The notes: generated by a model not told the origin, from the sequence alone. DNA of 64,000 nucleotides from Ignavibacteriales bacterium (GCA_037443785.1 JBBINR010000007.1:2709-66708); one strand, 5' to 3'. Numbered from the stretch's first letter, positions 6,852-25,486 are shown. A program made the numbers and translations.

Positions 6852-7658
6852 TTAATGCAATACCCTGATAAAATATTTTGATGGAGAAATCGAGACCTCA
6901 TACTCCACAGTATGAGTAACCTCAGGAATAAAATCCTCGTTCATGGCTCCGATTTTTGTTCCGATAAAATGAAGATAGAGAGTAGTATCTGATTTTTGGC
7001 GATAAAGGATAAATCTACCCAGAGAAGTTTTGGGTTCAAACCCAAGATCTTTAAGAATCAATGGTTTGTTTTCCTTCAAGAAACTTTTCTCTCCTCCTTC
7101 TTCTTGAACAGGAAGAATATAATATTGCTGTGCTTTATCTGAAATAGTTGCTAGTGTAAACATAACATCGTCGCGGTATTGAGAAAGGGCGTTTTCTCTT
7201 TTCATTTCAGAAAAGACGAAAGACGAAACCGATGTGAAAGTAATGATCAACGCAGGCATAAGAACCACCCACGCAACACTAATGCCATATCCAATCCGAA
7301 GGGGTAGCGAGCTTTGCAATCCTACTGCATTGCTCTCCTTTTTTTTCTTCCATAAAAAGATAAATGCCGTCGGCCCCGCAACAAATGAAAGGATAAGAGA
7401 AATATACGTCGTCAGAAGATCTCCCATTTCCAGGACTGGGAGCGGATCACCACTAAATTTTGCAATTCCTTGTTGTACAGTAACTTTACCGGCGATCGCC
7501 GGCGACACAAGGTATGATGCTATTGATCCAAACCTGTCTGAAATAAACTGGAACTGATTGATGAAAAATCTGAATGCCACAACGATAAGCAACAGCACTA
7601 CCGAACCGATGAAGAATATTTCACCATTCGAAAACCGTTTTTTAATTATTTCTTTCAT
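6852..7658 (-). CDS. Hypothetical membrane protein. Start assigned to MKEIIKKRF; the longer track ORF overlaps the upstream gene.
   Basis: N-terminal TM segment and further TM helices in the middle. No recognised motif. Last gene of the sigma / anti-sigma string. Confidence 0.45.
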   Translation of the reverse strand: MKEIIKKRFSNGEIFFIGSVVLLLIVVAFRFFINQFQFISDRFGSIASYLVSPAIAGKVTVQQGIAKFSGDPLPVLEMGDLLTTYISLILSFVAGPTAFIFLWKKKKESNAVGLQSSLPLRIGYGISVAWVVLMPALIITFTSVSSFVFSEMKRENALSQYRDDVMFTLATISDKAQQYYILPVQEEGGEKSFLKENKPLILKDLGFEPKTSLGRFILYRQKSDTTLYLHFIGTKIGAMNEDFIPEVTHTVEYEVSISPSKYFIRVLH

Positions 7659-8277
7659 ACAGTGCTCCATGTTTTGAAATCGTTGCGGTATATTGAAGTT
7701 TTCCGCAATATCCGCCAATATTGACAAAATCATCCTTCAATCCGTAAGCAACAGTATCGATACTGACCAGCCGTACAAGAGAATCACCTTGATAAAAGAC
7801 AAATGTTCTTATCTGGGCACTGGAAGGACGGGGTTTCATTTCTCCGTTGAAGACGGAACCGTTGTTCATATTTTTAAATGATTCAACAATGGAGTGTCTG
7901 TTCTCTTTCGATTGAGAATAATAATTATATAGAACAGGAATTGCCCGGTCATGCAGTTCTGATGAAATAATACTTGAACTTCCAATATAGGTTCGGATGA
8001 CGGATAACAATCCTCGTTGATATGATGTCATACGGTACATATTCACGGTATATGCAGTAAACGCCAATATGAAAATAATGAACAGACTGCCAACAAGTAC
8101 ATTCTCTTTTAACGAAAATGTTTTTTTAATAACCACAAAAAAAAGAAAAAGAAGATAGAGTGTTCCACCCATTGCACCAAAGATGACCGACCGCCACAGG
8201 TCAGTCTGCTCATATCCGAAAATGAACGGAACACCGACAAACAAACATCCTGCGATAAACCACCAAAAAATTTTCAT
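7642..8277 (-). CDS. Hypothetical membrane protein.
   Basis: 211 aa with three to four N-terminal TM helices followed by a soluble domain. It lies immediately downstream of the anti-sigma factor gene. Confidence 0.45.
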   Translation of the reverse strand: MKIFWWFIAGCLFVGVPFIFGYEQTDLWRSVIFGAMGGTLYLLFLFFVVIKKTFSLKENVLVGSLFIIFILAFTAYTVNMYRMTSYQRGLLSVIRTYIGSSSIISSELHDRAIPVLYNYYSQSKENRHSIVESFKNMNNGSVFNGEMKPRPSSAQIRTFVFYQGDSLVRLVSIDTVAYGLKDDFVNIGGYCGKLQYTATISKHGALYERNN

Positions 8278-8317
8278 CTATTCTCCAATTCAAAATATAA
8301 ACATACCATTCTACTTT

Positions 8318-8749
8318 TTAATCACGACGAGTAAAGCCGGACGGAGTTTCCCGCACCGCATTGATTGTTTGACGATATTGAGACGCCATGCTTTTTTCCT
8401 GATAGCTTCCAACGGAATACATAAATAATGTTATTACGACAAGAGCACAAAGTGAATAGATTGCTGATGGCACAGAAACTGTCAATTTTCGGTTCATCAA
8501 AGGTTCATTTTTCTTAACCAGTCCAAGGACAGAAAATTTTTGGTCGAGACTTTCCGGGACAGGAAGGTAACTCAGTTTCTTAACGCTATCATGTATCGAT
8601 TTTACCTGAACAAAAAAATTTCTGCACTCATCACATTCCCCCAAATGCAAAAAAAGCGGTTGAAGGAAATTTTGCGAAAGCTCATTGTCTAAAAACTGAC
8701 TGATATATTCTTTACTTGTTTGGCAGTTCATAATAATTTCTCCTTTCAA
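8318..8749 (-). CDS. Zinc-finger (ZAS-like) anti-sigma factor with a single transmembrane segment.
   Basis: HLGECDECRNFF HxxxCxxC motif, a TM helix (IYSLCALVVITLFMYSV), and a position directly downstream of the ECF sigma gene. Confidence 0.7.
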   Translation of the reverse strand: MKGEIIMNCQTSKEYISQFLDNELSQNFLQPLFLHLGECDECRNFFVQVKSIHDSVKKLSYLPVPESLDQKFSVLGLVKKNEPLMNRKLTVSVPSAIYSLCALVVITLFMYSVGSYQEKSMASQYRQTINAVRETPSGFTRRD

Positions 8750-8794
8750 AGCTTTTCTTTATGGATTCCCGATAGAAACATTCGGAAATAACAA

Positions 8795-9346
8795 CTACAT
8801 AAACGGTGCAAGCATTTCATTCAATGCCGCACGCGATTTAAATAATTTCGATTTTACTGCACTCACGGTCGACTCAGTTGCTTGAGCGATTTCTTCGTAC
8901 GATAATCCTTCGATTTCGCGGAGCATATATGCTTCACGGTATGCCGGTTTTAACCGCAGAATTGACTGCTGAATTTTTTCTTTCATCTCGGAATGGATTG
9001 CCGTGTGAAGCGGTGAATCACTGTCAAAAGCAGATTCATCTTCATCAAATCTTTCCATTGGAATAATTTTCTTTCTCCTCACGATCATCAACACTTCGTT
9101 TCGCGCCACCGAAAACAGCCATGATTTAAATACCATTCCATTGTGCAGCATTTGGATCTTTGTCATCATTTTCAAAAATGTTTCCTGAGTTGCGTCTTTC
9201 GACAATTCCGTATCTTCAAGCATTCTCAAACAAAAGGAAAAGATTGCATTTTTATAACGGGAATACAGTGCAGATCCCGCTTTGAGATTGCCATTCCGAA
9301 ATTGCGCAACTAATTCATCGTCTGAAAGCGGGATTGTATTCATCAT
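8795..9346 (-). CDS. RNA polymerase ECF-type sigma-70 factor.
   Basis: 183 aa. It has the region-2 pattern (FSFCLRMLEDTELSKDATQETFLKMM) and region 4 (YREAYMLREIEGLSYEEIAQATESTVSAVKSKLFKSR). Confidence 0.85.
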   Translation of the reverse strand: MMNTIPLSDDELVAQFRNGNLKAGSALYSRYKNAIFSFCLRMLEDTELSKDATQETFLKMMTKIQMLHNGMVFKSWLFSVARNEVLMIVRRKKIIPMERFDEDESAFDSDSPLHTAIHSEMKEKIQQSILRLKPAYREAYMLREIEGLSYEEIAQATESTVSAVKSKLFKSRAALNEMLAPFM

Positions 9347-9490
9347 TTTCGATAGAGTTGTCTATTCTCCGACTAAGATGCACAAGATCGAAGAAAGTTG
9401 CCAACTCCCGTCATTGCTTTCTCTTTCCATTCTCTCTATATTGCTACCACTTTCGTTAACCATCACCCCAATAATTTTTGGAGACCTGCT

Positions 9491-10378
9491 ATGAAACGCA
9501 TTGGTGTTATTGTCTTAATGCTTTTGTTTGCTCTTTCGGCAAATGCACAATTGAAAAAACGTGTTGCTGTTTCGCGATTCGAAAACCGTTCCGGTACCGG
9601 ATACAATCATCTCGGTGAAGGTGTTGCCGATATGCTTGTTACTGCTTTGGTGAAATCAAAGAAGTTCTCCGTTTTGGAACGACAGGAACTTGAAAAAGTT
9701 CTTGAGGAGCAAAAACTTGGCGAGAGCGGACTTGTAACACCGGAAACTGCCCCGAAACTTGGTAAATTGCTCGGCGTGGAGTTGCTTGTTATCGGTTCGG
9801 TCTCGGAATTTGGCACGAAGGAAAACAAAGTATCCGGCGGACTCTCATCATTCATTAGCGGCGGAATAAAAACAAAAACTTCACGCGCAGTTGTCGATAT
9901 TCGTTTGGTTAATACAGTCACCGGTGAAATTGTTGCCGCTGAAAAAGAAGAAGGCGAAGAGTCATCAACCGGCATCGCGGTTGATTACGAAGGAATTGAT
10001 TTCAACAATATGGACAGCTGGGATGATACCGATATCGGCAAAGCATGCCGCAAAGCAGTTGATGGCGTTGTTGAATTGATCGTGAAGAACATGGCAAGCA
10101 TTCCGTGGAGCGGAAAAATTTTAAAGATCAACAGCGATGGAACATTGCTGATGAAGCCCGGCTCCGAAGGGAATGTTAAACCTGGGATGGAATTCGATAT
10201 TTTCCGCGTTGGCGAACCGATTAAAGATCCCGATACCGGACTTGATCTGGGAGCCGAAGAAACAAAAGTCGGCCATATTAAAGTGATTGAAGATGCTCTG
10301 AAAGGAAAAGCGGCAAAAGCGAAAATTGTTGAGGGAAAAGACATTCAGGCAACCGATGTGCTTCACGAAGTAAAATAA
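9491..10378 (+). CDS. CsgG/LpoB-like periplasmic protein with an extra C-terminal domain of about 95 aa. The signal peptide is cleaved by signal peptidase I, not a lipobox.
   Basis: MKRIGVIVLMLLFALSANAQ signal. CsgG-family pattern VAVSRFENRSG...GVADMLVTAL...ERQELEKVLEEQ...VDIRLVNTVTGEI. No csgE or csgF partner nearby. Confidence 0.6.
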   Translation: MKRIGVIVLMLLFALSANAQLKKRVAVSRFENRSGTGYNHLGEGVADMLVTALVKSKKFSVLERQELEKVLEEQKLGESGLVTPETAPKLGKLLGVELLVIGSVSEFGTKENKVSGGLSSFISGGIKTKTSRAVVDIRLVNTVTGEIVAAEKEEGEESSTGIAVDYEGIDFNNMDSWDDTDIGKACRKAVDGVVELIVKNMASIPWSGKILKINSDGTLLMKPGSEGNVKPGMEFDIFRVGEPIKDPDTGLDLGAEETKVGHIKVIEDALKGKAAKAKIVEGKDIQATDVLHEVK

Positions 10379-10402
10379 TACAATTGTATATCGACAAAAC
10401 AA

Positions 10403-10435
10403 AAAACGGATGATCACTCATCCGTTTTTTGTTTT
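10403..10435 (+). terminator. Rho-independent terminator after the CsgG-like gene.
   Basis: aaaacggatgatcactcatccgtttttt hairpin followed by a T-run. Confidence 0.6.
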
Positions 10436-10520
10436 AAAATTACAAAATAAATTTCGTCGATTGCTCGTTGATAATAAGCGTCGTTCTCTCTATCTTGACT
10501 AACAATTTTCCCGGGCACCC

Positions 10521-11441
10521 ATGGCAACAGACATCATTCTCCAAACGTTTACACTCGGTAAGCAGTATAAAAATCGATGGGCGGCAAACGATATTAATCT
10601 GGAAGTGCATCGTGGCGACGTATTCGGGTTTCTCGGACCGAACGGTGCGGGGAAAAGCACGACGATTAGGATGATTCTTTCGTTGATCAAACCTACCACA
10701 GGATCAGTAGCAATTTTCGGACATGATCTTTTCGATGAACGTGAAAAAGCGCTGCAGAATGTTGCAGGAATTGTGGAGAAGCCGGATTTCTATTTATATC
10801 TCTCCGCGTTCAGAAATATGCAGATTGCCGGATCGCTGACACTTGGATCGGCGCCCACCGATAAAAAAATTATGGATACGCTTGCAATGGTGGGGCTTGC
10901 CGACCGCGCAAAAGATAAAGTGAAAACTTTTTCGCACGGAATGAAGCAGCGTCTTGGCATCGCTCAATCGTTATTATGCGACCCGCAATTGATTATGCTC
11001 GATGAACCGACGAATGGCCTCGATCCGCAAGGGATGAAAGAGGTGCGCGAGTTGATTACACTCCTTTCAAAAGAAAAAGGCATCACCGTTTTTCTTTCAT
11101 CCCATTTATTAAACGAAGTGGAACAAGTAGCAACGCGCATGGCAATTATCAACAAAGGAAAAATGATCGTGCAAGGAAGCGTGGATGAACTGCTTCGCGC
11201 GAATGCAAACAAAATATTATTCAATGTCGAACCGCGGAAAAAAGCTCTCACCATCCTTTCGTCTTTAAAATATATCACCGAATCGGTAATAACTAATGAG
11301 GGAATCACCGTAAAAATCGATGCAAAAAGAATTCCTGCTGCCGCAGCCAAACTCGTTGAACAGCGCTGTAAGATTTTTTCCATTGAACCAAAACACTCTC
11401 TTGAAGAATATTTCTTAAACGTTACAGAAAAAAGTGAATAA
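10521..11441 (+). CDS. ABC transporter ATP-binding protein (ABC-2 / exporter-type partner).
   Basis: Walker A GPNGAGKSTT, the signature LSGGM-like FSHGMKQR, Walker B LIMLDEPTNGLD and an H-loop, plus a C-terminal extension of about 85 aa. Confidence 0.9.
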   Translation: MATDIILQTFTLGKQYKNRWAANDINLEVHRGDVFGFLGPNGAGKSTTIRMILSLIKPTTGSVAIFGHDLFDEREKALQNVAGIVEKPDFYLYLSAFRNMQIAGSLTLGSAPTDKKIMDTLAMVGLADRAKDKVKTFSHGMKQRLGIAQSLLCDPQLIMLDEPTNGLDPQGMKEVRELITLLSKEKGITVFLSSHLLNEVEQVATRMAIINKGKMIVQGSVDELLRANANKILFNVEPRKKALTILSSLKYITESVITNEGITVKIDAKRIPAAAAKLVEQRCKIFSIEPKHSLEEYFLNVTEKSE

Positions 11442-13260
11442 GCAATTTTCAAAGATTATTACGCTGGCATATATGTGCTTGCACCTAACAGCAGCTCAGG
11501 ACACCGTTCAATATCAATTACCGCAGGTCGTGGTTTCTTCTTCAAAGTTTTCCCTCTCGCCAATTGAAATGAATCGATCGGTGACAGTCATTGATTCTGC
11601 TTCAATAAATAATGCGGCTCCGCTTTCCATTGATGAAGCATTGCAAATGTTCACCACTACAGAATTGCATCGACGCGGAGCATTAGGGGTGCAAACGGAT
11701 ATCGGAATACGCGGATCGACATTCAGCCAGCAAGCTATCTTGCTGAACGGAATACGAATTAACGATCCACAAACGGCGCATCATAATTTTGATATTCCCA
11801 TTCCGATGAGTTCAGTAAAACAGATCGAAATTGTGCGCGGCCCCTCTTCCTCTCATTTCGGTCCCGATGCATTTGGAGGAACGATCAATATTGTCACGGC
11901 ACATGAAACACCATCAACAACGTTTGAGCTTTCGGGCGGACAATTTGGATACTATTCGGGTTCGGGTCTCTATGGATTTTCCTACAATCAATTACATTCT
12001 TCAACAACAGTGCAATATGAAAAATCCGATGGATATCGGTATGATACTGAATTTGAAAATGTGACAGCAACAACAAGTAATTCCGTAATGCTTCCCGACG
12101 CATCATTTCATCTCCTTCTTGGGTATGTGAAGAAAAATTTCGGCGCATTCGATTTTTATTCTCCGGGAAAGAACAATCCATCCCACGAAAAAACCGAAAC
12201 AATTTTCTCCGGCATGGGTACAGAATTTTCTGTCAATGATTGGGATATTACGGTGCACAGTACTTACCGTCATCATTACGATGATTTCATTTACATCATC
12301 ACGAATCCGTCGTATTCGCACAATCAGCACAACACCAATGTTTACACGGTTGATGGTAATGGACTGCACTCTTTCACTTCATCGTTGCTTCTTAAAACAT
12401 CAGCTGAAGCGAATCTGGATAATATCAACAGCACAAAATTAGGAATTCACACCAGAAAATCTCTCGCACTCTCAGCCGTTACACGATGGAATCCTGTAAC
12501 ACCATTAAGCATTGATGCCGGACTTCGATTTGATATTCGATCTGATTATGAAAATCAGGTTCATCCCATCATCAGCGCGGGATATTTTTTGAATGAAGAA
12601 AATAAAATCTTCGTTTCGGTTGGAACTTCGTTCCGCGCGCCAAGTTACACTGATCTTTATTACAGCGACCCTTCAACCGTTGGCAATCCGAATTTAAAAC
12701 CGGAAAAAGGAACATCGTACGAAGCGGGAATTTCATCATTTCCTCATCCAGCCTTGGTTTTACAATTCTCCGGATTTTTGCGGCATCAAGATAATTTGAT
12801 TGATTTCGTTTTGCACCAACCAAATGGAAAATATTACGCAGTCAATTTTACAGCACTGGATGTGAAAGGAGTCGAATTTCAATCGACATGGTCAAATAGT
12901 TCATCACGTGCTCATTGGTTCAAACAATTTTTTGCGGGCTACACATTTCTTGAATCCATTGTAGATACAAAAGGTGCGTTGAAAACTCGATATAGTTTAA
13001 CTCATCCCAAGCATCAACTTAATGGAGCGGCAACGTTTGAAGTACCGTCGGACATGATGATAACGTTTGGCGGTTCATACGCTCATCGCAGCGATTATGA
13101 CGATCAAACGAATTTTGACGTAACCGTGACAAAAAAAATTGAGATGGTCGAGATGATTGTAAAAGCAATGAATGTATTCAATTCATCGTACGAAGAAATT
13201 CCGGGCATTCCCCTTCCCGGACGATGGATCATCGGAAAAATTCGTTGGACAATTTTATAA
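11434..13260 (+). CDS. Small TonB-dependent-receptor-like outer-membrane barrel (plug plus barrel, 608 aa) encoded inside the ABC operon.
   Basis: Signal peptide; a TonB-box-like PQVVVSS; plug-domain motifs (TVIDSASINNAAPLSIDEALQMF, IRGSTFSQQAILLNGIRINDPQ, IEIVRGPSSSHFGPDAFGGTINIV). Start overlaps the ATPase stop by 8 bp. Confidence 0.7.
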   Translation: MNKQFSKIITLAYMCLHLTAAQDTVQYQLPQVVVSSSKFSLSPIEMNRSVTVIDSASINNAAPLSIDEALQMFTTTELHRRGALGVQTDIGIRGSTFSQQAILLNGIRINDPQTAHHNFDIPIPMSSVKQIEIVRGPSSSHFGPDAFGGTINIVTAHETPSTTFELSGGQFGYYSGSGLYGFSYNQLHSSTTVQYEKSDGYRYDTEFENVTATTSNSVMLPDASFHLLLGYVKKNFGAFDFYSPGKNNPSHEKTETIFSGMGTEFSVNDWDITVHSTYRHHYDDFIYIITNPSYSHNQHNTNVYTVDGNGLHSFTSSLLLKTSAEANLDNINSTKLGIHTRKSLALSAVTRWNPVTPLSIDAGLRFDIRSDYENQVHPIISAGYFLNEENKIFVSVGTSFRAPSYTDLYYSDPSTVGNPNLKPEKGTSYEAGISSFPHPALVLQFSGFLRHQDNLIDFVLHQPNGKYYAVNFTALDVKGVEFQSTWSNSSSRAHWFKQFFAGYTFLESIVDTKGALKTRYSLTHPKHQLNGAATFEVPSDMMITFGGSYAHRSDYDDQTNFDVTVTKKIEMVEMIVKAMNVFNSSYEEIPGIPLPGRWIIGKIRWTIL

Positions 13261-13263
13261 TAT

Positions 13264-14103
13264 ATGATAACCTTACTTCGATTTGAACTCTTTAAAACAT
13301 ACGCCAAGTGGCGAACCTATATCGGATTTCTTGCCGTCGGAATTCTCATCCCTGTCATCATGTGGATCATGGCCTATTCCGGAGAGCAAATGGTTCAACG
13401 CCAGCTTCGGTCGCTGCAAAATGATTTTTTCATTTCGGGAAATTTATTTAACGGCTGGGTGATTTCGCAATTGATTATGAACGGTCTGTGGGTTCACGTT
13501 CCGGCATTAATCGCACTGGTTGCCGGCGATCAATTATCCGGCGAGGCAACGGCGGGAACATTTCGTCTGATTCTCATTCGTCCCGTGTCACGCACACGGA
13601 TTTTGAATGCAAAATATTGTGCAACACTCCTGTATACCGCATCACTTGTCCTCTCAATTGCCGCACTTTCATTGGGACTTGGAATGTCAATTTTCGGTTC
13701 AGGCGATCTTATTGCTATCGACAGAGAAGGGATTTCGATCCTTCCGGAATCGGAACTTGTCATGCGTTTCATTTTTGCCTACGCATTAGCAATCTGGTCG
13801 ATGTTTGTTGTTGCATCCCTCGCATTTTTTATTTCATCATTTGTAGAAAATGCCATTGGACCGATAATTACGACAATGACGGTGATTGTGATTTTTTTTA
13901 TCATTTCAAACCTGCCGGTTGAGTCTGTCGAGGGCATTAAACCATACTTATTTACCACACACATGAGTGTATGGCAGGAAGCATTTCGTGAAACGTACGA
14001 TTGGAAGAAAATTATTGATTCGTGTATTGCCCTTGGACTAAACAGTGTAGTTTTTTATACGGCAACATTGTTCATCTTTAAACGAAAAGATATTCTCACG
14101 TAA
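13264..14103 (+). CDS. ABC-2 family transporter permease.
   Basis: 279 aa with six predicted TM helices. It starts 4 bp after the preceding gene. Confidence 0.7.
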   Translation: MITLLRFELFKTYAKWRTYIGFLAVGILIPVIMWIMAYSGEQMVQRQLRSLQNDFFISGNLFNGWVISQLIMNGLWVHVPALIALVAGDQLSGEATAGTFRLILIRPVSRTRILNAKYCATLLYTASLVLSIAALSLGLGMSIFGSGDLIAIDREGISILPESELVMRFIFAYALAIWSMFVVASLAFFISSFVENAIGPIITTMTVIVIFFIISNLPVESVEGIKPYLFTTHMSVWQEAFRETYDWKKIIDSCIALGLNSVVFYTATLFIFKRKDILT

Positions 14104-14140
14104 AAACAATGTCAGATATTTCTCATTAACCAGGAGCTTT

Positions 14141-15409
14141 ATGGCACTCACCGATAAACTCAAAGAATTTCGTGAAGGATTTCACCCGTCATTCTGGACC
14201 GCCAACGGAATGGAATTGTTTGAGCGCCTTGCATACTACGGACAGCAGATTGTTTTTATGGTATACCTGCGCAACAGACTCGGTTTCACCGAAACAGAGG
14301 CTGGAGCACTCTCTGGTTTATTTGGCGGATTGATTTACCTTCTTCCCATTCTTGGCGGTACATTGGCGGATAAGTGGGGATTCAGACGCGCATTCAGTGT
14401 TGCCTTTTCAATTCTTGGGATTGGATATTTTCTTATCGGATCAGTCGGCATGACTGCATTCGAAGGGCTGTATGCAAATCTCCCCCAGTATTGGCTGCTT
14501 ACGGCTTTTCTTGTTTTTACTGCCTTCGGAGGTTCATTCATTAAACCGTCGGTGCTCGGCACAGTGAGCGTAACAACAAATGAAAAAACAAAATCACTCG
14601 GCTTTGCGATTTATTACTGGCTTGTCAATGCCGGCGCGATGATTGGACCGACGATCGCCTATTTTGTTCGTGACAGCTTTGGCAATGAATATGTCTATCT
14701 CGTTTCTTCCCTCAGTTGTTTTGGAATGCTGATTGCAAATCTCATTCTTTACAAAGATGTAAAAAGTGAAAAAACAGAAACATCGGAATCGCTCGGTAAA
14801 AAGATTACAAATCTTTTTGTGGTCCTCGGCAATTTTAAATTCATAATCTTCCTGCTGATTTATTCGCTGTATTGGATCATTTTCTGGCAGGAGTTCATCA
14901 TTGTTCCGTATTACATCACCGATTACATTGGGAAAGAAACGCCGTACGAAATCGTACAATCGTGGTCGGCGGCAGGAGCAATTATTCTTTTCCAAATTCC
15001 GATTAACAGGCTGACGAAAAATATTCACACACGAACGGCGATTCTTATCGGATTCATTGTTTCCTCGTTTATCTGGATTATCATAGCCATCCATCCTTCT
15101 ATTCCAACAATTGCAGCAGGAATTGTTGCCTTTGCAGTCGGCGAAATGATTCAGGCTCCACGCTATTATGAATATATTTCGGAAATTGCGCCGCGCGGCC
15201 AGCAGGGATTATATCAAGGATACGCATTTTTACCAATTGCCATCGCTCGATTTGTCGGCGATCCTTTTGGCGGCTGGATTTACCAAACTGCAAAAGCGGC
15301 TGGCACTCCATCGCTTGTGTGGTTTTCTCTCATCGGTATAGGGATTTTTGGCGCTGTTTGTATGGCACTTTATAACAAAATCATCGCAAGACAAGAAGCG
15401 AGGGTTTAG
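14141..15409 (+). CDS. MFS transporter resembling the POT/PTR2 family.
   Basis: 422 aa with 12 TM helices. N-terminal ELFERLAYYGQQIVFMVYL and GGTLADKWGFRRA resemble the POT-family ExxERFxYYG and GxxADxxxG motifs. Confidence 0.6.
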   Translation: MALTDKLKEFREGFHPSFWTANGMELFERLAYYGQQIVFMVYLRNRLGFTETEAGALSGLFGGLIYLLPILGGTLADKWGFRRAFSVAFSILGIGYFLIGSVGMTAFEGLYANLPQYWLLTAFLVFTAFGGSFIKPSVLGTVSVTTNEKTKSLGFAIYYWLVNAGAMIGPTIAYFVRDSFGNEYVYLVSSLSCFGMLIANLILYKDVKSEKTETSESLGKKITNLFVVLGNFKFIIFLLIYSLYWIIFWQEFIIVPYYITDYIGKETPYEIVQSWSAAGAIILFQIPINRLTKNIHTRTAILIGFIVSSFIWIIIAIHPSIPTIAAGIVAFAVGEMIQAPRYYEYISEIAPRGQQGLYQGYAFLPIAIARFVGDPFGGWIYQTAKAAGTPSLVWFSLIGIGIFGAVCMALYNKIIARQEARV

Positions 15410-15411
15410 AT

Positions 15412-16104
15412 ATGAAAAAGGTTCATGGAATAATTTTCTTTTTGGTGATTGGTTTTCATTTGTCATCAGCACAGCATATAACGGCCCAGAAAATTCTCGA
15501 TAACGTGAAAACGCATTTTGATGACGTGAACGATTATTCCGTTACGCTTGATATCAAACCAAACATCGAACGATTCAATGCAAAAGAGATGCATTTGAAA
15601 TTATTTTATAAACAGCCGAACAAAGTCCATATTGAATCCAAGGGATTTGTCATGCTGCCGAAGCAATTATTCGAAGTAACCCCGTCTCAGCTCATCTCAA
15701 AATTCGATCCGGTCTTGATTGATACCAAAAAAGAAAATGGAAAAACTATCTACGTACTTCGCCTGATTTCGAAACCGGAAAAGAATCGACCAACGATTGA
15801 AAATTATATTACGATTGACGGAAATCGCTGGGTAATAGTGAAAATGCAGGCAACCCCAGCTGAAGGACGATCCATCGACGTGAATTTTGACTACACTACC
15901 ATCGACGGTAAATATATTCTTCCTTCGTCAATGATGGCCTCATTTAATTTCGGCGGTGATGATGATTCGCTCGCACGGATGAAAGGATTCCGAGGAGTTC
16001 CGACGAAGGGCACGGTAGAAATCCAATACTCCGATTACAAAGTGAATCAAGGATTGAGTGATGAGATTTTTGAGAAGAAAGAAACACAAAAAGGAAATAG
16101 GTGA
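15412..16104 (+). CDS. LolA-like outer-membrane lipoprotein-sorting / lipid-carrier fold protein.
   Basis: Signal peptide; about 230 aa. The MFS stop codon is followed within 3 bp by its start, suggesting translational coupling. Confidence 0.45.
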   Translation: MKKVHGIIFFLVIGFHLSSAQHITAQKILDNVKTHFDDVNDYSVTLDIKPNIERFNAKEMHLKLFYKQPNKVHIESKGFVMLPKQLFEVTPSQLISKFDPVLIDTKKENGKTIYVLRLISKPEKNRPTIENYITIDGNRWVIVKMQATPAEGRSIDVNFDYTTIDGKYILPSSMMASFNFGGDDDSLARMKGFRGVPTKGTVEIQYSDYKVNQGLSDEIFEKKETQKGNR

Positions 16105-16110
16105 CATAGT

Positions 16111-16139
16111 AAAAAGCCGCTGAAGTCAGCGGCTTTTTT
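16111..16139. terminator. Bidirectional terminator between the convergent LolA-like gene and carA.
   Basis: aaaaagccgctgaagtcagcggcttttttta is a perfect stem flanked by an A-run and a T-run. Confidence 0.7.
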
Positions 16140-16140
16140 A

Positions 16141-17283
16141 TTAATTCTTATTTTTCTCCATCATCTTCACAAACTTCGAGAAGAGATAATCGCTGTCGTG
16201 CGGACCGGGCGATGCTTCGGGATGGTATTGAACGCAGAAGAGCGGCAACTTTTTATGCTCAAAGCCTTCCACAGTCTGGTCGTTCAAATTCAAATGTGTC
16301 AGTTCTACTTGTGATTCATCCATCGATTTCCAGTCAACGGCAAAGCCGTGATTTTGGGAGGTAATTTCAATCTCGCTCGTTTTTAAATTCTTCACAGGAT
16401 GATTTGCCCCGCGATGTCCGAATTTCAACTTGTATGTTTTTCCGCCGAGCGCTAACGCCAGCAACTGATGGCCGAGACAAATTCCGAAGATCGGTTTCTT
16501 CCCCACCAACTTCTTGATGTTCATGATAGCATATTTCACAGCATCAGGGTCGCCGGGGCCGTTAGAAAGAAATATTCCATCGGGATTCATTGCCAAAACT
16601 TCTTCAGCGGAAAAACTTGCCGGAACGACAGTGAGATCACATCCATAGCTGGTCAATCGGCGAAGAATATTTTGTTTCACACCATAATCGAACACAACAA
16701 CATTGTATTTCTTTTCAGCCTTCTCTCCATTTTTTGTTGCAAGAGCAAAAGGAGTTTTATCGACTTCACTCCATCGATATTCTTTCGATGTCGTCACTTT
16801 CTTTGCGAGATCAAGCCCGGTCATTTCAGGAGATTTTTTTGCTTTGGCAACTAATGATGTGTCATCAAGGTCAATCGTAGAAATTACCCCGCGCATCGCT
16901 CCTTGATCGCGAAGGATCTTCGTCAGCATTCGTGTATCAATTCCCTGAATTGCGAGAATGTTATTTTTCTTTAACCAATCACCAAGGGACGATCGCGAGC
17001 GCCAGTTACTGTGAAAATCAAAATATTCTTTCACCACAAATCCGCTGACTTGCGGTTTCACTGATTCAACATCATCACTGTTCACACCGTAATTGCCGAT
17101 CTGTGTATATGTCATTGTCACGATTTGTCCAGCGTACGACGGATCGGTAAGAATCTCCTGATATCCCGTGATACTCGTGTTAAAGCAGACTTCCCCGGTC
17201 ACTTCACCTTCGGCACCAAAATGCTCACCGGTAAATACTGTTCCATTTTCTAATGCAAGCTTTGCTATCATATATCCATTCAT
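16141..17283 (-). CDS. carA: Carbamoyl-phosphate synthase small (glutamine amidotransferase) subunit.
   Basis: 380 aa with the N-terminal CPSase small-chain domain ([34 protein letters not shown]) and GATase catalytic [10 protein letters not shown]...HGFAV. No carB is adjacent. Confidence 0.93.
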
Positions 17284-17464
17284 TCGTCATTGCGAGAAGC
17301 GAAGCGGCAAAATAATTCCCTAAAGATTTTACCGTCCCGATACGTTCGGAACCCGCAATAACGCGATGATAAAAAAAATCTTCGCTGAATTAAAAATACG
17401 AAATTTTTTCCATTTGAAGAAATACTTCTTGACTAATTTCACGCAAATGTGTTTATTTAAGTAG

Positions 17465-17680
17465 TCTTAGAGGAGCGGTACACACAAGTACGCACATCGA
17501 AAGTGAACAACTTGATGACATGTGCAGAAAAGGTTCGCAATAAGTACCGCCGAAAGTTCATAGGGAGTTTCCTCTGTTAACTTGGGATGCAAGTAAAGAG
17601 CTTGCATACTGTTGTTTCGACATAACGAAACAAAGCGCTAACGACCATCTGCACATAGTTGTTTTGTACCGCTCGTAATG
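17465..17680 (+). ncRNA. Candidate lysine riboswitch (L-box) aptamer in the dapB leader.
   Basis: AGAGGAGCGGUAC at the 5' end pairs with GUACCGCUC at 17666..17674 (P1). Internal CCGCCGAAAG and CUGUUAAC match the L-box CGCCGAAG and CUGUCA cores. There are several internal perfect hairpins (atgcaag/cttgcat, ttgtttcg/cgaaacaa). Lysine-biosynthesis genes lie directly downstream. Confidence 0.5.
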
Positions 17681-17696
17681 CGGTCATATCAATCAA

Positions 17697-17731
17697 AAGT
17701 AGAGAGTCCTAAGCGCACCTCTACTTTTTTC
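17697..17731 (+). terminator. Intrinsic terminator / attenuator hairpin of the dapB leader.
   Basis: gtagagag...ctctac stem followed by tttttt at 17725..17730, 18 nt before the dapB ATG. Confidence 0.65.
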
Positions 17732-17748
17732 GTTTTAAAAGGATTGAT

Positions 17749-18495
17749 ATGAACATTGCACTTATCGGTTACGGAAAAATGGGCAAAGAAATCGAACAAA
17801 TTGCCGTCGAACGAGGACATTTGATCGTTGCCAAATTTGACATCGATTCTCCCTTGCCATCGCCAAATTCACCATTATACGGTTCAACCCCCATTGATTG
17901 CTGTATCGATTTTAGTACGGCATCCGCAGTCGCGGTTAATGTAACAACTCTCGTACAAAGCGGAATTCCATTGGTCATTGGAACCACAGGATGGTCCGCA
18001 GAGATGGAAAACATTCGGAATATTGTAAAAACCAATAATGGTTCGGTTGTCTATTCATCCAATTTTTCCCTTGGCGCAAATATCATGTTCCGGCTTGTAG
18101 AAGCCGCTTCGGTAATTTTCAATCATTACGATCAGTATGATATTTCTGTTCACGAAACGCATCATATGATGAAGAAGGATGCGCCAAGCGGAACCGCATT
18201 GACGATTGCGAATAAAGTATTGACGCACATAGATCGAAAGAAAAAAATTACATCTACTACTCCTTCTAAAGAAGAATTATTTGTTTCAAGTTCTCGCGTT
18301 GGCACAGTGGTTGGCGAACATGCAGTACGATTCAATTCTCTCGCAGACGACATTGTTATTTCACACACAGCGCACAATCGAAGCGGATTTGCATTAGGCG
18401 CTGTTCTCGCTGCCGAATGGATTGTCGACAAAAAAGGATTGTATTCGTTCGAGGAGTTATTGTGGGACCAATACAATACAGAAATTAAAAAATAA
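17749..18495 (+). CDS. dapB: 4-hydroxy-tetrahydrodipicolinate reductase.
   Basis: N-terminal NAD(P)-binding IGYGKMGK and the DapB signature HETHHMMKKDAPSGTAL. 248 aa. Confidence 0.92.
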   Translation: MNIALIGYGKMGKEIEQIAVERGHLIVAKFDIDSPLPSPNSPLYGSTPIDCCIDFSTASAVAVNVTTLVQSGIPLVIGTTGWSAEMENIRNIVKTNNGSVVYSSNFSLGANIMFRLVEAASVIFNHYDQYDISVHETHHMMKKDAPSGTALTIANKVLTHIDRKKKITSTTPSKEELFVSSSRVGTVVGEHAVRFNSLADDIVISHTAHNRSGFALGAVLAAEWIVDKKGLYSFEELLWDQYNTEIKK

Positions 18496-18526
18496 AAATA
18501 TCACTTATCATTTAAGGAATACCATT

Positions 18527-19429
18527 ATGACACCAAATTTTTCATTTCGCGGAGCGGCAACGGCATTAGTTACACCGATGCTTCCAAACGGAGATGTAGA
18601 CACTGAAGCACTTCAACGCCTCGTTGAATTTCAAATCGAAAATGGAATCAACGCGTTGGTTCCCGTCGGAACAACCGGTGAAAGTGCAACACTCTCCCAT
18701 CCTGAACATCATCATGTTATGGACGTTGTTGCCGAGCAAGCAAAAGGCCGCGTACCGATTATCGTTGGTGCCGGAAGTAATTCAACACGTGAAGCAATTT
18801 CGTTAACGCAACATGCGCGCGCAATCGGTGCAAATGCCGTGTTGTCTGTCGCTCCATATTACAATAAACCAACACAGCAAGGATTCTTTGAGCATTACAA
18901 AGCAATCACGGAAGCGGTCGATATTCCGGTTTTCGTGTACAATGTTCCCGGGCGGACAGGAAGTAACATCAATGCTGAAACAACGCTGCGCCTCGCTGAA
19001 CTGCCGGGCATTGCAGGAATTAAAGAAGCATCGGGAAATATTTCTCAAGTAATGGAAATTCTTCGGCATCGCCCAAATAATTTCGTTCTTCTCTCCGGTG
19101 ATGATGCTTTAACACTGCCGATGATGGCATGTGGTGCAGATGGAGTAATTTCCGTTGTCGCAAACGAAGTTCCAAAAGATTTTTCGACAATGGTTCGGTT
19201 CTGCCTCGAGGGAAATTTCATTGCAGCACGAAAAATTCATGAACGATTGCTCGACTTGATGAATTTGAATTTTATGGAATCAAATCCAATACCGGTAAAG
19301 TCCGCCCTTGCCATGATGGGAATGATCAACGAAGCGTATCGGCTCCCGTTAACGCGAATGTCGATGGATCATCGATTAAAATTACGAAGAGTACTTGAAG
19401 AGCTTTCATTGCTGGGACAACACGCATGA
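18527..19429 (+). CDS. dapA: 4-hydroxy-tetrahydrodipicolinate synthase. Start assigned to the internal MTPNFSF methionine rather than the track's 18422.
   Basis: DapA-family motifs [10 protein letters not shown] and [10 protein letters not shown], plus the active-site lysine region. About 300 aa. Confidence 0.9.
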
Positions 19430-20262
19430 CAACACCGGATCTTCGCGGTCAAATACTAAAGGTCTTTGGCGATTCAGGAACTTCGAAGGCAAAAGCCCTT
19501 GGTCTCTTCCGAAAATTTTTAGATCAGCTTGATTCAGGAAAGATCAGATCAGCAGAAAAAATCGACGGAACATGGGTTGTTCATGAATGGGTAAAAAAAG
19601 GAATCCTTCTCGGATTTCGTTTGGGACAGCTCAAAGAAATTCCGCGAGGTTTGCCATTTAAATTTTTTGATAAAGATACGATTCCTTTAAAGAAAATTTC
19701 CGCAAAAAATAATATTCGCGTGGTCCCCGGCGGATCATCGATTCGCAAAGGTGCCTACGTTGCTTCTTCGGTCATTGTCATGCCACCCGCTTACATTAAT
19801 ATCGGCTCGTACGTTGATGAAGGAACCATGGTCGATTCGCATGCGCTTGTCGGCTCCTGCGCTCAAATCGGAAAGCGGGTTCACATTAGTGCAGCTTCAC
19901 AAATTGGCGGCGTGCTCGAACCGATTGGTGCGTTGCCGGTTATTATTGAAGACGATGTTTTGATTGGCGGCAATTGCGGAATTTATGAAGGAACAATTGT
20001 CAGCAGGCGTGCCGTGATTGCTACCGGTGTTACATTAACGGCTTCCACTCCAGTGTATGATATCGTCAATGAAACAATCATAAGGAAGAACGAAAACGGC
20101 TCATTAATCATCCCGGAAAACGCGGTTGTTGTTGCCGGCACAAGAAAGATTGATTCTTCCTTTGCACGAAATAACGGATTACACTTGTATACACCGCTGA
20201 TCGTTAAATATCGCGATGAAAAAACGGACGCAAAGACTGCACTGGAAGAAAGCTTGCGGTAA
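19426..20262 (+). CDS. dapD: 2,3,4,5-tetrahydropyridine-2,6-dicarboxylate N-succinyltransferase (long hexapeptide-repeat form).
   Basis: Left-handed beta-helix hexapeptide repeats ([41 protein letters not shown]...) with a DapD-like N-terminal domain. It overlaps the dapA stop by 4 bp. Confidence 0.8.
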
Positions 20263-22407: not shown

Positions 22408-23040
22408 TTGTCTGATTCAGAATTGAAAGCCAGGATCTTTGAAGTCGCAAAGGAAAATTTTTTCAACAACGGCTTCAGCAAAATAACGATGGAAGAATTT
22501 GCTCAGAGCATGGGCATGAGCAAAAAAACGATTTATAAATTTTTCCCAAGTAAAGTTGAATTGGTCCGAGAAATCACGCACGAAAAGATGAACAGCATTC
22601 ATTCGACCTGTATGAAATTGCATAATGATAAATCGGTAGACTTTATGGAAAAAATTCGATGCGTCACGAATTATCTGTCAAAGGAAATGCGTTCGATGAA
22701 ACCACAGTTCTATACTGATCTCCAGCGGACGATGCCCGATGTGTGGAAAGAAATTGAAGAATTTCGTACGGAACGCATCTTGCAGGATTTCTCACGGACA
22801 ATTCGTGAAGGTGTCGAGCTCGGGGTATTTCGCAAAGATATCAATATCGATGTATTAGTATTAATGTATGCCAATGCCATGCAGTCGATTATTAACCCTG
22901 AAACATTGTCAACACTTCCACTGAACGCTTCACAAGCGTACGAAGCAATTATCGAAATAATTTTTGGCGGAGTGTTTACGCAACAAGCAAAAGATAAATA
23001 TATACATCAGAACAGTGATCCTATGGAGGAAAAGATCTAA
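22408..23040 (+). CDS. TetR/AcrR-family transcriptional regulator (TTG start).
   Basis: N-terminal HTH FFNNGFSKITMEEFAQSMGMSKKTIYKFFPSKVEL. 210 aa. Its stop overlaps the TolC gene start. Confidence 0.85.
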   Translation: MSDSELKARIFEVAKENFFNNGFSKITMEEFAQSMGMSKKTIYKFFPSKVELVREITHEKMNSIHSTCMKLHNDKSVDFMEKIRCVTNYLSKEMRSMKPQFYTDLQRTMPDVWKEIEEFRTERILQDFSRTIREGVELGVFRKDINIDVLVLMYANAMQSIINPETLSTLPLNASQAYEAIIEIIFGGVFTQQAKDKYIHQNSDPMEEKI

Positions 23041-24365
23041 TGAAATATTATGGAATTCTTGGAGTCGTATTATTTGTTGGAATATTATCAGCACAAACAT
23101 CGAAGCACGCGAGCCTTACAATCGATCAGGCGCTTCAAATCGGTTTGGAAAACAGTAAAACGCTTAAAACTTCGCAATTTAAAGTTGTTGCTGCAGAAGC
23201 AAAAGCATACGAAACAGATGCGCTTGGTTTGCCGTCTTTAAAATTTAACGGAACATATACACGATTGAGTGAAGTTCCTACGCCTGTTTTAGATTTCTCG
23301 AAGCTAGGATTACCTATTCCTCCACAGAAATTCGGAGACAATGTTGTAAATACTTACGGACTGAAGGCAACTGTGCAGCAGCCGTTATTTACGGGAGGAA
23401 AACTTTCCGGAGCGATTGATGCCGCTCAATATGTTTCCGATGCGTCGAAAGAAGATTTCAACAAAGATAAAGCTGATGTTATTTACAACATCAAAGCGGC
23501 GTATTGGAATTTATACAGAGCAATTGAATTTAGCAAAGTTGTCGATGAAAATGTAAATCAAATAAAATCACACGCAGCAGATGCAGAAAATTTGATGAAG
23601 CAAGGATTACTGACAAATAACGAATTATTGAAAATTCAAGTGCAACTTTCCGATGCCCTTGTCCGTCAGATAGATGCAACAAACAATATTAAACTTTCAA
23701 CATATGCGTTGAACAATACGCTGGGACTTCCAATTACCGCCGACATTACACTCGCTTCTAAGATTGAGGTAAGCGATCGAAACTGGTCAGATATCGAACA
23801 ATTGCTCAAGGTGGCATTTGATAAACGACCGGACCTCCTGGCGATGAGTGCACGTGTAAAAGCAAGCGAAGCGGGGTTAACATCTGCTCGCGGTGGATGG
23901 TGGCCTCAGGTGTATCTCGTGGGTAATTATAATTATCTTCGGCCGAATTCTCGAATTTTTCCGACAAAAGATGTATTCAAAGATACATGGGATGTAACGC
24001 TTTCTGTTTCTCTTGATATTTGGAACTGGAATCAAACGGGAAATCAAACGACGCAGGCAGAAGCTGTGTTTTCTCAAACTGAACAAGGTTTTTCTTTAAT
24101 GAAGGATGGCGTAACGTTAGAGGTAACACAAAACTATCTTGCCGTCAATCAAACAAAGGAACGCATTGCGGTAGCCGAACAAGGCGTGAAACAAGCCGAG
24201 GAAAATTACCGTGTTACCAATGAAAAATATAAAAAAGGCCTAACAACAAATTCTGAATTACTCGATGCTGAATCGTTGTTATTGCAGTCAAAATTAAATT
24301 ACACGCAATCGTTAGTTGAATTTGAATTAGCCGGCGCACGGCTGTCAAAATCAGTCGGCGAATAA
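23040..24365 (+). CDS. TolC-family outer membrane efflux protein.
   Basis: 441 aa with a signal peptide and two repeated halves carrying the coiled-coil-rich TolC/OEP pattern (LTIDQALQIGLENSKTLK...). Confidence 0.85.
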   Translation: MKYYGILGVVLFVGILSAQTSKHASLTIDQALQIGLENSKTLKTSQFKVVAAEAKAYETDALGLPSLKFNGTYTRLSEVPTPVLDFSKLGLPIPPQKFGDNVVNTYGLKATVQQPLFTGGKLSGAIDAAQYVSDASKEDFNKDKADVIYNIKAAYWNLYRAIEFSKVVDENVNQIKSHAADAENLMKQGLLTNNELLKIQVQLSDALVRQIDATNNIKLSTYALNNTLGLPITADITLASKIEVSDRNWSDIEQLLKVAFDKRPDLLAMSARVKASEAGLTSARGGWWPQVYLVGNYNYLRPNSRIFPTKDVFKDTWDVTLSVSLDIWNWNQTGNQTTQAEAVFSQTEQGFSLMKDGVTLEVTQNYLAVNQTKERIAVAEQGVKQAEENYRVTNEKYKKGLTTNSELLDAESLLLQSKLNYTQSLVEFELAGARLSKSVGE

Positions 24366-24392
24366 AATATTTATCAGGAAGGATACAGTTAT

Positions 24393-25454
24393 ATGAATAC
24401 ATTCAAATTAATTTCCATCAGTGTCGTGATTCTCGGGGTGGCGCTCGGCTTTGTCTTTAACAAAGAAGATGGAAAACAGAACACGACTACGTCGTCGGCC
24501 AACACTATTGCCACCTCCTACTCCGTTTCCGTGATAAAAGCGGCAAGGAAAAATCTTTCGGAGAACTTCTCGCTCGTCGGCACAATCGTCGCCAATAACG
24601 ACGTCGTCATTCTTTCGGAAACGCAGGGACGGGTTGTGAAAATCAATGCAGAAGTTGGCGATTACAAACCCGCCGGATCAGTCATTGTTGAGGTAGAAGG
24701 CGAATTAAAAGAGGCCGCCTATAAAACTGCAAAGATGACTTTTGATAAATCAAAAAAAGACCTTGAACGTTTTGAATCGTTATACAAAGAAAATTCCGTT
24801 TCCGAATCTCAAATTGAACAAGCACGGTGGAATTTTCAAAATGCCGAAGCTCAATATATTGTTGCAAAAAAACAGTACAGTGATACAAAAATCACCACAC
24901 CGATTTCCGGCATCGTGACTGCACGATATGTCAATATTGGAACAACCGTTATCGGCGCACCACAATCAACGGCAATCGCCAATGTGGTTGATATTTCAAA
25001 ATTGAAAGTGAAAGTAAACGTTGCGGAAAAAGATGTGTTCAAATTAACCGTTAATGATAAAGTCAATGTCTCGACTGACGTATTTCCGAATATAGAATTC
25101 ACCGGTGTCATCACCAACATCTCTGCCAAAGGAGACGATGCACACACGTATCCGGTCGAAGTAATGCTGAATAATTCCAAAAAACAATTAAAAGCCGGCA
25201 TGTTCGGCCGCGTAACATTTTCACCGAAATCGTCGGCAACAGCATTAATTGTTCCGCGTGAGGCAGTCATCGGAAGTTTGAAAGACGCTAAAATCTACAT
25301 CGTACAAAATAATGTTGCAAAACTCCGTGATGTTACCATTGGCGGAGAATATGGAACCGATGTAGAAGTCTTGAGCGGATTACAGCAAGGAGAAATCGTT
25401 GTCGTCAATGGACAGAACAACCTGAAAGATAACGCCACCGTTATTATCCGTTAA
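24393..25454 (+). CDS. RND efflux periplasmic adaptor (membrane fusion protein, HlyD family).
   Basis: 353 aa with an N-terminal anchor, a coiled-coil hairpin and lipoyl/beta-barrel segments (TITTPISGIVTARYVNIGTTV). Confidence 0.85.
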   Translation: MNTFKLISISVVILGVALGFVFNKEDGKQNTTTSSANTIATSYSVSVIKAARKNLSENFSLVGTIVANNDVVILSETQGRVVKINAEVGDYKPAGSVIVEVEGELKEAAYKTAKMTFDKSKKDLERFESLYKENSVSESQIEQARWNFQNAEAQYIVAKKQYSDTKITTPISGIVTARYVNIGTTVIGAPQSTAIANVVDISKLKVKVNVAEKDVFKLTVNDKVNVSTDVFPNIEFTGVITNISAKGDDAHTYPVEVMLNNSKKQLKAGMFGRVTFSPKSSATALIVPREAVIGSLKDAKIYIVQNNVAKLRDVTIGGEYGTDVEVLSGLQQGEIVVVNGQNNLKDNATVIIR

Positions 25455-25486
25455 TCCGAAACTGAAAAGAGAAAAGGATTTTTTAT

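Follow-up and report, generated by a model that had tools for sequence, protein, structure and literature searches.

Five closely packed genes lie at positions 10,521 to 16,104 of a 64,000-nucleotide stretch of DNA from an Ignavibacteriales bacterium (GCA_037443785.1 JBBINR010000007.1:2709-66708), referred to here, at its full length, as the window. They encode an ATP-binding cassette (ABC) ATPase, a TonB-dependent receptor (TBDR), an ABC-2 permease, a major facilitator superfamily (MFS) transporter resembling the POT family, and a secreted LolA-like protein. A mosaic architecture for this locus is very probable. The complete model, in which a conserved core of ATPase, ABC-2 permease and LolA-like protein is co-transcribed with independent importer genes, has an even chance of being correct. 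Its most specific element, the hand-off of an exported molecule from the ABC-2 pair to the LolA-like protein, falls slightly short of that.

Comparison of related loci provides the principal evidence. A permease scan of species-representative genomes yielded 25 loci, in metagenome-assembled genomes labelled as uncultured Bacteroidota or Ignavibacteria. A metagenome scan with the permease alignment contributed 80 more, down to 47% identity, and homologue look-ups a few more; all relatives are from uncultured lineages. Gene content was counted by tblastn of the window proteins on 102 non-redundant loci (designated L plus a number), and the denominators given below are the loci with enough flanking DNA. 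The ATPase gene is immediately 5' of the permease gene at all 49 testable loci, and a LolA-like gene follows 3' of the permease at 46 of 48. The MFS gene is present at 36 of 48 and missing from the other 12. The TBDR gene occurs at only six of 49, all within the window's clade; at the remaining 43 the ATPase gene directly abuts that of the permease.

Quick neighbour-joining trees, of which the group tree uses two proteins (ATPase and permease), separate three arrangements. Group I has permeases 47-53% identical to that of the window, and its ATPase, permease and LolA-like genes are directly adjacent with no MFS gene in between. In 13 of these most distant loci the LolA-like gene begins after a gap of about 10-130 nt. 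Group II members typically show the order ATPase-permease-M24 peptidase-MFS-LolA-like, although in several of them the sequenced stretch includes no MFS or no LolA-like gene. The window itself falls in group III, where the order is ATPase-(TBDR)-permease-MFS-LolA-like. The trio is retained while the flanking genes change completely, in at least six contexts as judged by clustering of open reading frames (ORFs). No functional neighbour of the trio is common to all groups; only a DtxR-type regulator with Nramp recurs downstream, in two clades. Because the trio persists across changed flanks and the MFS and TBDR genes are often absent, the trio is taken as the stable evolutionary unit, and the MFS gene (with or without M24) and the TBDR gene as later insertions. 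Conservation inside the window's own clade says little, since the flanks are syntenic there as well (ECF sigma factor, CsgG-like protein, carA, dapB). Synteny in related genomes had been proposed as a test in a preliminary description of the locus, and the same five-gene order does recur in five further non-redundant assemblies (seven loci: L002, L014=L039, L024=L040, L030 and L031). One of these, L031, keeps all five genes between different flanks. The five-gene order is thus no product of chance.

The preliminary description identified five tightly linked genes, and their coordinates match exactly, with successive junctions of -8, +3, +37 and +2 nt. Its five family calls (ABC ATPase, TBDR-like barrel, ABC-2 permease, POT-like MFS and LolA-like protein) all hold by Pfam or structure. 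The tight packing had suggested one machine spanning the envelope, with the TBDR as an integral part. Comparative genomics resolves this instead into a core of three genes to which two importer genes have been added: 43 of 49 loci have no TBDR, and the whole most-distant group has no MFS transporter. Furthermore, the MFS transporter and the TBDR belong to importer families and the ABC-2 pair is of the exporter type, so a single direction of transport for all five proteins is unlikely. The genes, the families and the distinctness from the Gld, Nos and Btu systems thus stand, whereas a single five-part machine is not supported; to speak of a five-gene 'trans-envelope operon' is to read too much into a mosaic operon.

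Hairpins delimit the operon (table 1). The upstream one, 3' of the CsgG-like gene, was read directly in the sequence and is a likely terminator that sets the 5' boundary. It is missing from the output of a consensus terminator scanner, probably because an A/T extension of the stem consumes the T tail. At the 3' boundary, a hairpin separates the LolA-like gene from convergent carA. Rfam searches found neither a riboswitch nor any other element in or before the operon, whether at gathering score over the whole window or at E<=1 over positions 9300-16300; the Rfam matches consist of a lysine riboswitch (17460-17648) and chance matches on terminator hairpins. These scans rule out control of the TBDR or the operon by a vitamin riboswitch, and none is present in the TBDR loci L002, L014 and L024 either.

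Table 1. Features of the mosaic operon and its boundaries, with positions counted from the first nucleotide of the window.
Feature	Position	Strand	Role	Evidence
Terminator hairpin (likely)	10405..10434	+		ACGGATGA-TCAC-TCATCCGT followed by a T-run
ABC transporter ATPase, 306 aa	10521..11441	+	core component 1	PF00005 E 8e-30
BtuB-class TBDR, 608 aa	11434..13260	+	accessory gene	Plug PF07715 E 1.4e-16; TonB_dep_Rec_b-barrel PF00593 E 2.7e-32
ABC-2 permease (type V, exporter-type), 279 aa	13264..14103	+	core component 2	PF12730, PF12679
POT-family-like MFS transporter, 422 aa, 12-transmembrane-segment size	14141..15409	+		MFS_1 E 3e-29
Secreted LolA-superfamily protein, 230 aa	15412..16104	+	core component 3	AlphaFold2 (AF2) model and Foldseek; PF17131 sub-threshold
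Bidirectional terminator hairpin	16111..16138	.		12-bp stem, 6 GC pairs, T-rich tail TATTAATTCT

The ATPase carries a C-terminal extension and belongs to a DrrA/ABCA/NosF-like subfamily. It reaches 227 bits against the drrA model TIGR01188, which is under the cutoff, and its nearest structures in the PDB are nucleotide-binding domains of TM_1403-type, ABCA1/3/4/7 and NosF proteins. The permease exceeds the Pfam cutoffs (about 27 bits) for both ABC2_membrane_4 (PF12730, 38.8 bits) and ABC2_membrane_2 (PF12679, 34.0 bits), and hydropathy reveals six hydrophobic segments, corresponding to six transmembrane (TM) segments. Pfam assignment, six TM segments and the adjacent DrrA/ABCA-type ATPase place it in the ABC-2 (type V) exporter class. 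Conservation of the permease is unusually strong: an alignment of relatives 47-100% identical has a mean column identity of 74%. Invariant motifs include GNLFN, FG.GD and P..FTT....W, and all three predicted periplasmic loops contain many invariant residues. The exporter type of the pair follows from the ABC2_membrane families, the closeness of the ATPase to ABCA lipid transporters, TM_1403 and NosF, and the six TM segments; from this type we infer the direction of transport.

The LolA-like protein was recognized mainly by its predicted structure. It scores 22.9 bits (E 7e-5) against PF17131 (LolA_like), where the gathering score is 30; its orthologues range from no match up to 32.3 bits, and the precomputed domain is recorded in 19 of 46 homologues (approx. 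40%). Judged from these scores, the family is peripheral to PF17131 (LolA_like, or TP_0789-like). The AF2 model has a predicted local distance difference test score (pLDDT) of 81 and a predicted template modelling score (pTM) of 0.73. The top Foldseek matches are 3buu (NE2245, E 2.6e-9) and 9tp6 (Porphyromonas gingivalis LolA3, E 1e-8), followed by 3bk5 and the DUF1329 protein 4z48, and then, more weakly, by canonical LolA, LolB, LprG and RseB. There are 43 PDB matches at E<=1e-3, essentially all of LolA, LolB, LprG, RseB or DUF1329 type. The model thus supports assignment to the LolA fold, an unclosed antiparallel beta-barrel with a helical lid. A profile search of the PDB with the sequence gave no match. 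Matches to the NCBIfam models LolA1_Flavo (19.4 bits, cutoff 100) and LolA3_fam (18.9 bits, cutoff 83) involve the signal-peptide region only. The protein is secreted and not lipidated: like all orthologues inspected, it has an SPI-type signal peptide and no lipobox cysteine. The family is sizeable; clustering at 50% leaves 913 representatives with E<=1e-3, of which 536 reach E<=1e-10. Its members come, as far as names show, from uncultured lineages, and those that bear any label are called only 'outer membrane lipoprotein-sorting protein' or 'hypothetical'.

A mechanism can be proposed for the core. (i) An (ATPase)2(permease)2 complex would use ATP to pull an envelope molecule, either hydrophobic or amphipathic, out of the inner membrane; candidate cargoes include a lipid, a lipid-linked compound, a lipopeptide or a lipoprotein. 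(ii) The LolA-like protein would dock on the conserved periplasmic loops of the permease and take over the cargo. (iii) It would then shield the cargo in the periplasm. We infer contact between permease and carrier from the adjacency of their genes, and the substrates named here are likewise candidates. (iv) The POT-family MFS transporter, inserted into the module and co-transcribed with it, would import di- and tripeptides, paired in the sister clade with an M24 (prolidase-type) peptidase. (v) The BtuB-class receptor, which was inserted in just part of the clade that includes the window, would import a vitamin-like small molecule. The logic of the core would resemble that of LolCDE-LolA, MlaFEDB-MlaC and Rv1410-LprG, with another ABC fold. 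A precedent for an exporter with a LolA-fold carrier is provided by LprG-Rv1410 (PMC10576003, PMC6519032), and an in-silico precedent by a proposal for Borrelia BBJ26-28 (PMC13078400). In the literature library searched, no paper combines the terms for an ABC-2 transporter and a LolA-like protein, and a search for 'TP0789' returned a proteomics mention only.

The MFS protein is related to POT transporters at the level of PDB matches and motifs. Scores against PTR2 (PF00854, 23.6 bits, cutoff 27) and TIGR00924 (59.5 bits, cutoff 130.2) are under both model cutoffs. The best PDB matches are nevertheless POT transporters: PepT 4lep/6ji1 (E 4e-14), DtpD (4.8e-13), DtpB (1.3e-10) and DtpA (9.1e-9). 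The likeness is limited to the N-terminal half. POT signature motifs are ExxERFxYY in TM1 and FYxxINxG in TM5; the corresponding sequences here, ELFERLAYY (from residue 25) and YYWLVNAG, are kept in all subtypes found at the locus. Three deep subtypes occupy the position between the permease (or M24) gene and the LolA-like gene. Their identity to the MFS protein of the window is approximately 83%, 60% and 41%, and their distribution is patchy with respect to the ATPase-permease tree. Compared with its group II counterpart, the subtype in the window shows 69-76% identity, although permease identity is only about 52%. This pattern suggests cassette-like replacement at a fixed site. An M24 peptidase gene is found at 10 of 48 loci and is followed by the MFS gene at seven of those 10. 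The transporter is probably a proton-coupled di- and tripeptide importer working with the peptidase.

In the sister clade (L025 8917-14207; L059, L065, L069, L081 and L082), the M24 gene, of prolidase type, precedes the MFS gene. Most of the longer loci there also carry a DtxR-type regulator with a FeoA domain 3' of the module, usually together with an Nramp-Usp fusion. These surroundings may represent a peptide-use or Mn-homeostasis neighbourhood.

The receptor is a member of the BtuB class. Its Plug and barrel matches both exceed the Pfam gathering scores, and the protein comprises a signal peptide, a TonB box (LPQVVVSS, residues 29-36), a plug and a 22-strand barrel. The family alignment has the consensus L..VVVT..R at the TonB box, which can be compared with the box of Escherichia coli BtuB, DTLVVTA. 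By sequence, E. coli BtuB is also the best solved relative (E 4e-21). The AF2 model, for which 72 sequences were aligned, reaches pLDDT 92 and pTM 0.90, and its best Foldseek match is again E. coli BtuB (TM-score 0.81/0.85). Structure prediction therefore bears out the plug and barrel that the preliminary description had assigned. The same description called the protein small, which was mistaken: 608 aa is the normal size of the BtuB class, in which BtuB chains have 594 aa. The NCBI gene call begins 13 codons later, at 11473, giving 595 aa and no signal peptide. If translation begins instead at the GTG codon at 11434, so that the gene overlaps the end of the ATPase gene by 8 nt, the protein has a proper signal peptide and agrees with both the family alignment and the predicted N-terminal helix; an independent gene call also uses this start.

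Orthologous receptors are 48-66% identical and always lie between ATPase and permease (inspected in L002, L014=L039, L024=L040, L030 and L031). In the receptor tree these operon-type TBDRs are monophyletic and are sister to receptors from thiamine and MetH contexts. In the ATPase-permease tree the loci that bear them are scattered among TBDR-less sisters, and the ATPase-permease gap of TBDR-less relatives yields no receptor remnants by tblastn even at E<=10. This patchiness is likely to stem either from long residence in the operon followed by clean loss on several occasions, or from exchange through recombination between the conserved flanking genes. The nearest outgroup receptors, 35-41% identical, occur in two recurrent contexts: thiamine operons and Ham1-TBDR-MetH. 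The receptor thus lies in a radiation of vitamin-type TBDRs, and most likely imports a small cofactor-like or vitamin-like molecule.

The thiamine operon is conserved in L029 (4473-11024), L112 and L113, where it encodes two TBDRs (about 750 and 615 aa) together with thiamine pyrophosphokinase. The gene that comes next, for an SSF-family transporter, is intact in L029 and L113 and represented by split calls in L112. In L029 a thiamine pyrophosphate (TPP) riboswitch precedes the TBDR-TBDR-thiamine pyrophosphokinase-SSF operon. This arrangement looks like thiamine-salvage uptake with SSF replacing PnuT. The order in L027/L028 (4806-13164) is RadA-Ham1-TBDR-MetH, MetH being the B12-dependent methionine synthase; no cobalamin riboswitch was found in L027 at gathering score. 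The window itself has RadA (30431-31789) and Ham1 (29093-29680), with neither a TBDR nor MetH after them.

Several points weigh against the mosaic model and its exporter-carrier core. None of the three core proteins has a characterised homologue. Searched against the PDB, the permease profile finds NosY only, marginally (E 0.08), and so has no significant match to a solved structure; the LolA-like protein is under both Pfam and NCBIfam thresholds. At two loci, L025 and L063, a LolA-like gene was not found within 8 kb of the ABC pair. The loci are best-scoring matches and phylogenetically clustered, so that the counts are no unbiased census. The independence of the importer genes is also open to challenge: an MFS gene always exactly between permease and LolA-like genes, in three deep subtypes, could reflect a real functional tie, and the old monophyletic group formed by the operon-type TBDRs implies long residence and may be functional.

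The last of these points, together with the tight spacing and overlap of the five genes, would suit a single trans-envelope pathway, in which ATPase, permease and MFS, LolA-like carrier and outer-membrane (OM) barrel move one lipid, lipoprotein or peptide-like compound. The operon-type TBDRs are found only at this position, the five-gene block of L031 is intact between different flanks, and the Borrelia in-silico proposal similarly unites an ABC transporter, a LolA-like protein and an OM barrel (PMC13078400). Such a pathway is nonetheless very unlikely: the trio persists without the TBDR (43 of 49 loci) or the MFS transporter (12 of 48), TBDR-less loci hold no remnants of the receptor, and the TonB box, BtuB architecture and POT symporter motifs denote importer families, opposite in direction to an ABC-2 exporter. 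An uptake chain is scarcely more probable. Here the TBDR or another OM channel would pass a hydrophobic or peptide-like nutrient to the LolA-like protein, acting as a periplasmic binding protein, and from there to the POT-like MFS transporter for entry to the cytoplasm, and the ABC-2 pair would be a separate exporter or would secrete a 'phore' that is re-imported. The gap of 2 nt between the MFS and LolA-like genes, the position of the MFS gene, where present, directly 5' of the LolA-like gene, the M24 peptidase and DtxR/Nramp pair of the sister clade, and the existence of MFS/LolA-fold pairs such as LprG-Rv1410 (PMC10576003) are all compatible with it. In the distant group, however, the LolA-like gene directly follows the permease gene, and the sole nearby MFS gene (L108) is further downstream on the opposite strand; L025 conversely keeps the ABC, M24 and MFS genes without a LolA-like gene. 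The sample already points to pairing of the LolA-like protein with the ABC-2 pair more than with the MFS transporter. POT transporters are not known to use periplasmic binding proteins, which also counts against the chain.

Two further alternatives were weighed. In a role in immunity or detoxification, a LanFEG-like ABC-2 pump would expel membrane-active peptides or lipopeptides, and the LolA-like protein would be a periplasmic scavenger analogous to LanI. The ATPase reaches 214 bits against the lantibiotic-protection ATPase model TIGR03740, the sole NCBIfam match of the permease is the lantibiotic-immunity permease MutG (E 1.3e-5), and LolA of P. gingivalis and Vibrio cholerae is reported to bind polymyxin (PMC13103446). 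Both NCBIfam scores are, however, far under their cutoffs, no biosynthetic or two-component regulatory genes are adjacent, and the module is single-copy, strongly conserved (74% for the permease) and set in housekeeping contexts, unlike typical variable immunity loci; this role is unlikely, though less so than the uptake chain. A known anti-phage defence system was also considered and rejected: PADLOC gave generic ABC-ATPase similarity only, and nothing for the TBDR, permease, MFS or LolA-like proteins. Finally, the LolA-like, MFS and TBDR genes might have no functional coupling to the ABC pair, their adjacency being inherited synteny in one uncultured lineage. The flanks are indeed syntenic within the window's clade, and all loci are from related FCB-type metagenomic lineages. 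Retention of the trio over at least six wholly different flanking contexts, with permease to LolA-like gaps of only about 10-130 nt in the distant group, makes this as improbable as the single pathway. The mosaic model remains the favoured account.

Few types of machine are known to carry hydrophobic molecules through the periplasm, namely Lol, Lpt, Mla, AsmA-like bridges and LprG-Rv1410. If the model is true, an ABC-2 exporter conserved together with a LolA-fold protein of its own would extend this list, and the pairing would give LolA paralogues without a function, such as the LolA3-like proteins of Bacteroidota, a testable partner. The cassette-like behaviour of the locus, with the TBDR present or absent and three POT subtypes at one site, bears on how operons accrete genes. 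A bolder view, which we consider doubtful, sees in the trio an envelope-trafficking route that has so far escaped recognition, in an uncultured lineage related to Bacteroidota/Ignavibacteria. There a type-V exporter would take the place of a MacB-like LolCDE and load a LolA-fold chaperone of its own with a lipid, lipopeptide or lipoprotein. That POT-type transporters and a private TBDR clade were captured repeatedly at just this locus would then point to a functional tie, such as a recycling route for the peptide or head group of the molecule exported.

The surroundings of the operon in the window include other envelope functions. On the minus strand 5' of the operon (region 6852-10378) are genes for an extracytoplasmic function (ECF) sigma factor (8795-9346), a zf-HC2 anti-sigma factor (8318-8749) and two proteins without a Pfam match. 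A CsgG-like lipoprotein gene (9398-10378; PF03783 E 4e-40) is divergent from the sigma-factor genes. The sigma/CsgG-like pair adjoins the operon throughout the window's clade, with the terminator in between. Downstream, the lysine riboswitch (78 bits) precedes a dapB-dapA-dapD-like operon (17460-20262) and is also present in L002 and L014. Further along are a TetR-OEP-HlyD-AcrB efflux operon of the resistance-nodulation-division (RND) type (22408-28678) and a TRAP transporter (DctP, DctQ, DctM) with a TAtT-type T-component (31881-35612). A 1491-aa protein (45149-49624), whose sole Pfam signal is an N-terminal DUF748 match under gathering score, may be another candidate for envelope lipid transport; DUF748 is presumably an AsmA/TamB-like family. 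A cluster at 51221-63473 encodes type IX secretion C-terminal-domain proteins (51221-52573 and, with GHL10, 61074-63473), a PorV-like protein (53914-54912) and a 1055-aa SusC-like TBDR (57723-60890), and is consistent with an FCB/Bacteroidota-type organism.

The preliminary description saw no match to Gld, Nos or Btu systems, and this is confirmed by scores under the cutoffs and missing partner genes. E. coli BtuB and BtuB1-3 of Bacteroides resemble the receptor in size, plug, 22-strand barrel and TonB box, although identity to the solved BtuBs is only 18-20%. It is not a BtuB equivalog: TIGR01779 gives 135 bits against a cutoff of 599.7 and NF007926 129.7 against 836, there is no cobalamin riboswitch at gathering score or at E<=1, and no BtuG-like or BtuCDF genes are nearby. 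The NosDFYL and GldAFG systems share a DrrA-type ATPase and an ABC-2 permease with periplasmic accessory proteins, and NosF/NosY is the nearest solved ABC-2 system. NosDFY(L) was rejected on the marginal NosY match (E 0.08) and the lack of NosD, NosL and NosZ domains among the neighbours, and GldAFG on 187.4 bits against 402.6 for the GldA model TIGR03522 and the lack of a GldG-like ORF in the locus. Compared with the POT/PTR symporters (DtpA-D, PepT), the MFS protein shares the ExxERxxYY (TM1) and YYxLVNxG (FYxxINxG-type) motifs and the best PDB matches, but has 422 aa as against approximately 490-520 aa for the bacterial POTs matched.

Carrier systems offer closer parallels to the core. In LprG-Rv1410 of Mycobacterium, which exports triacylglycerides and lipoarabinomannan (LAM), the transporter gene adjoins that of a LolA/LppX-fold carrier, an arrangement shared by the MFS and carrier genes of the operon. 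Rv1410 itself is an MFS transporter of the drug-efflux type and LprG a lipoprotein (PMC10576003); in the present locus the MFS protein is POT-type, the carrier has no lipobox, and its constant partner is the ABC-2 pair rather than the MFS transporter. The Borrelia BBJ23-29 cluster, described in silico (PMC13078400), has a MacB-like type VII permease and an Omp85-family barrel, whereas here an ABC-2 permease is found with a TBDR, and the barrel is dispensable in most relatives. LolA3 (P. gingivalis PGN0947, Flavobacterium johnsoniae Fjoh_0605) is similarly a secreted LolA paralogue whose function is not known, from the same broad phylum; it is the second-best structural match (9tp6, TM-score about 0.58) at about 13-14% identity. 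Papers on LolA3 report no link to an ABC-2 pair (PMC13103446, PMC11885536). Deletion of LolA3 in F. johnsoniae leaves gliding and amylase secretion, a type IX read-out, unaffected (PMC11885536), and LolA3 binds LolB only weakly (PMC13103446). Membership of the canonical LolA (LolA1) or LolA3 families was rejected, as the NCBIfam scores are far under the cutoffs and no LolA in the PDB is found by sequence. The LolCDE-LolA system of E. coli is alike in combining an ABC ATPase, an inner-membrane permease and a soluble LolA-fold carrier for presumed extraction of hydrophobic cargo. The locus does not encode a Lol lipoprotein export system: the permease is of ABC-2 and not FtsX/MacB type, and the locus has no gene resembling LolB. 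Type VII (MacB-like) proteins such as LolC and LolE have four TM segments and a large periplasmic domain, as opposed to the six-TM ABC-2 (type V) permease with short loops, and the carrier, without sequence similarity to LolA, is structurally closer to NE2245 and LolA3 than to canonical LolA. The core is thus a variation on an ABC exporter with a LolA-fold periplasmic partner.

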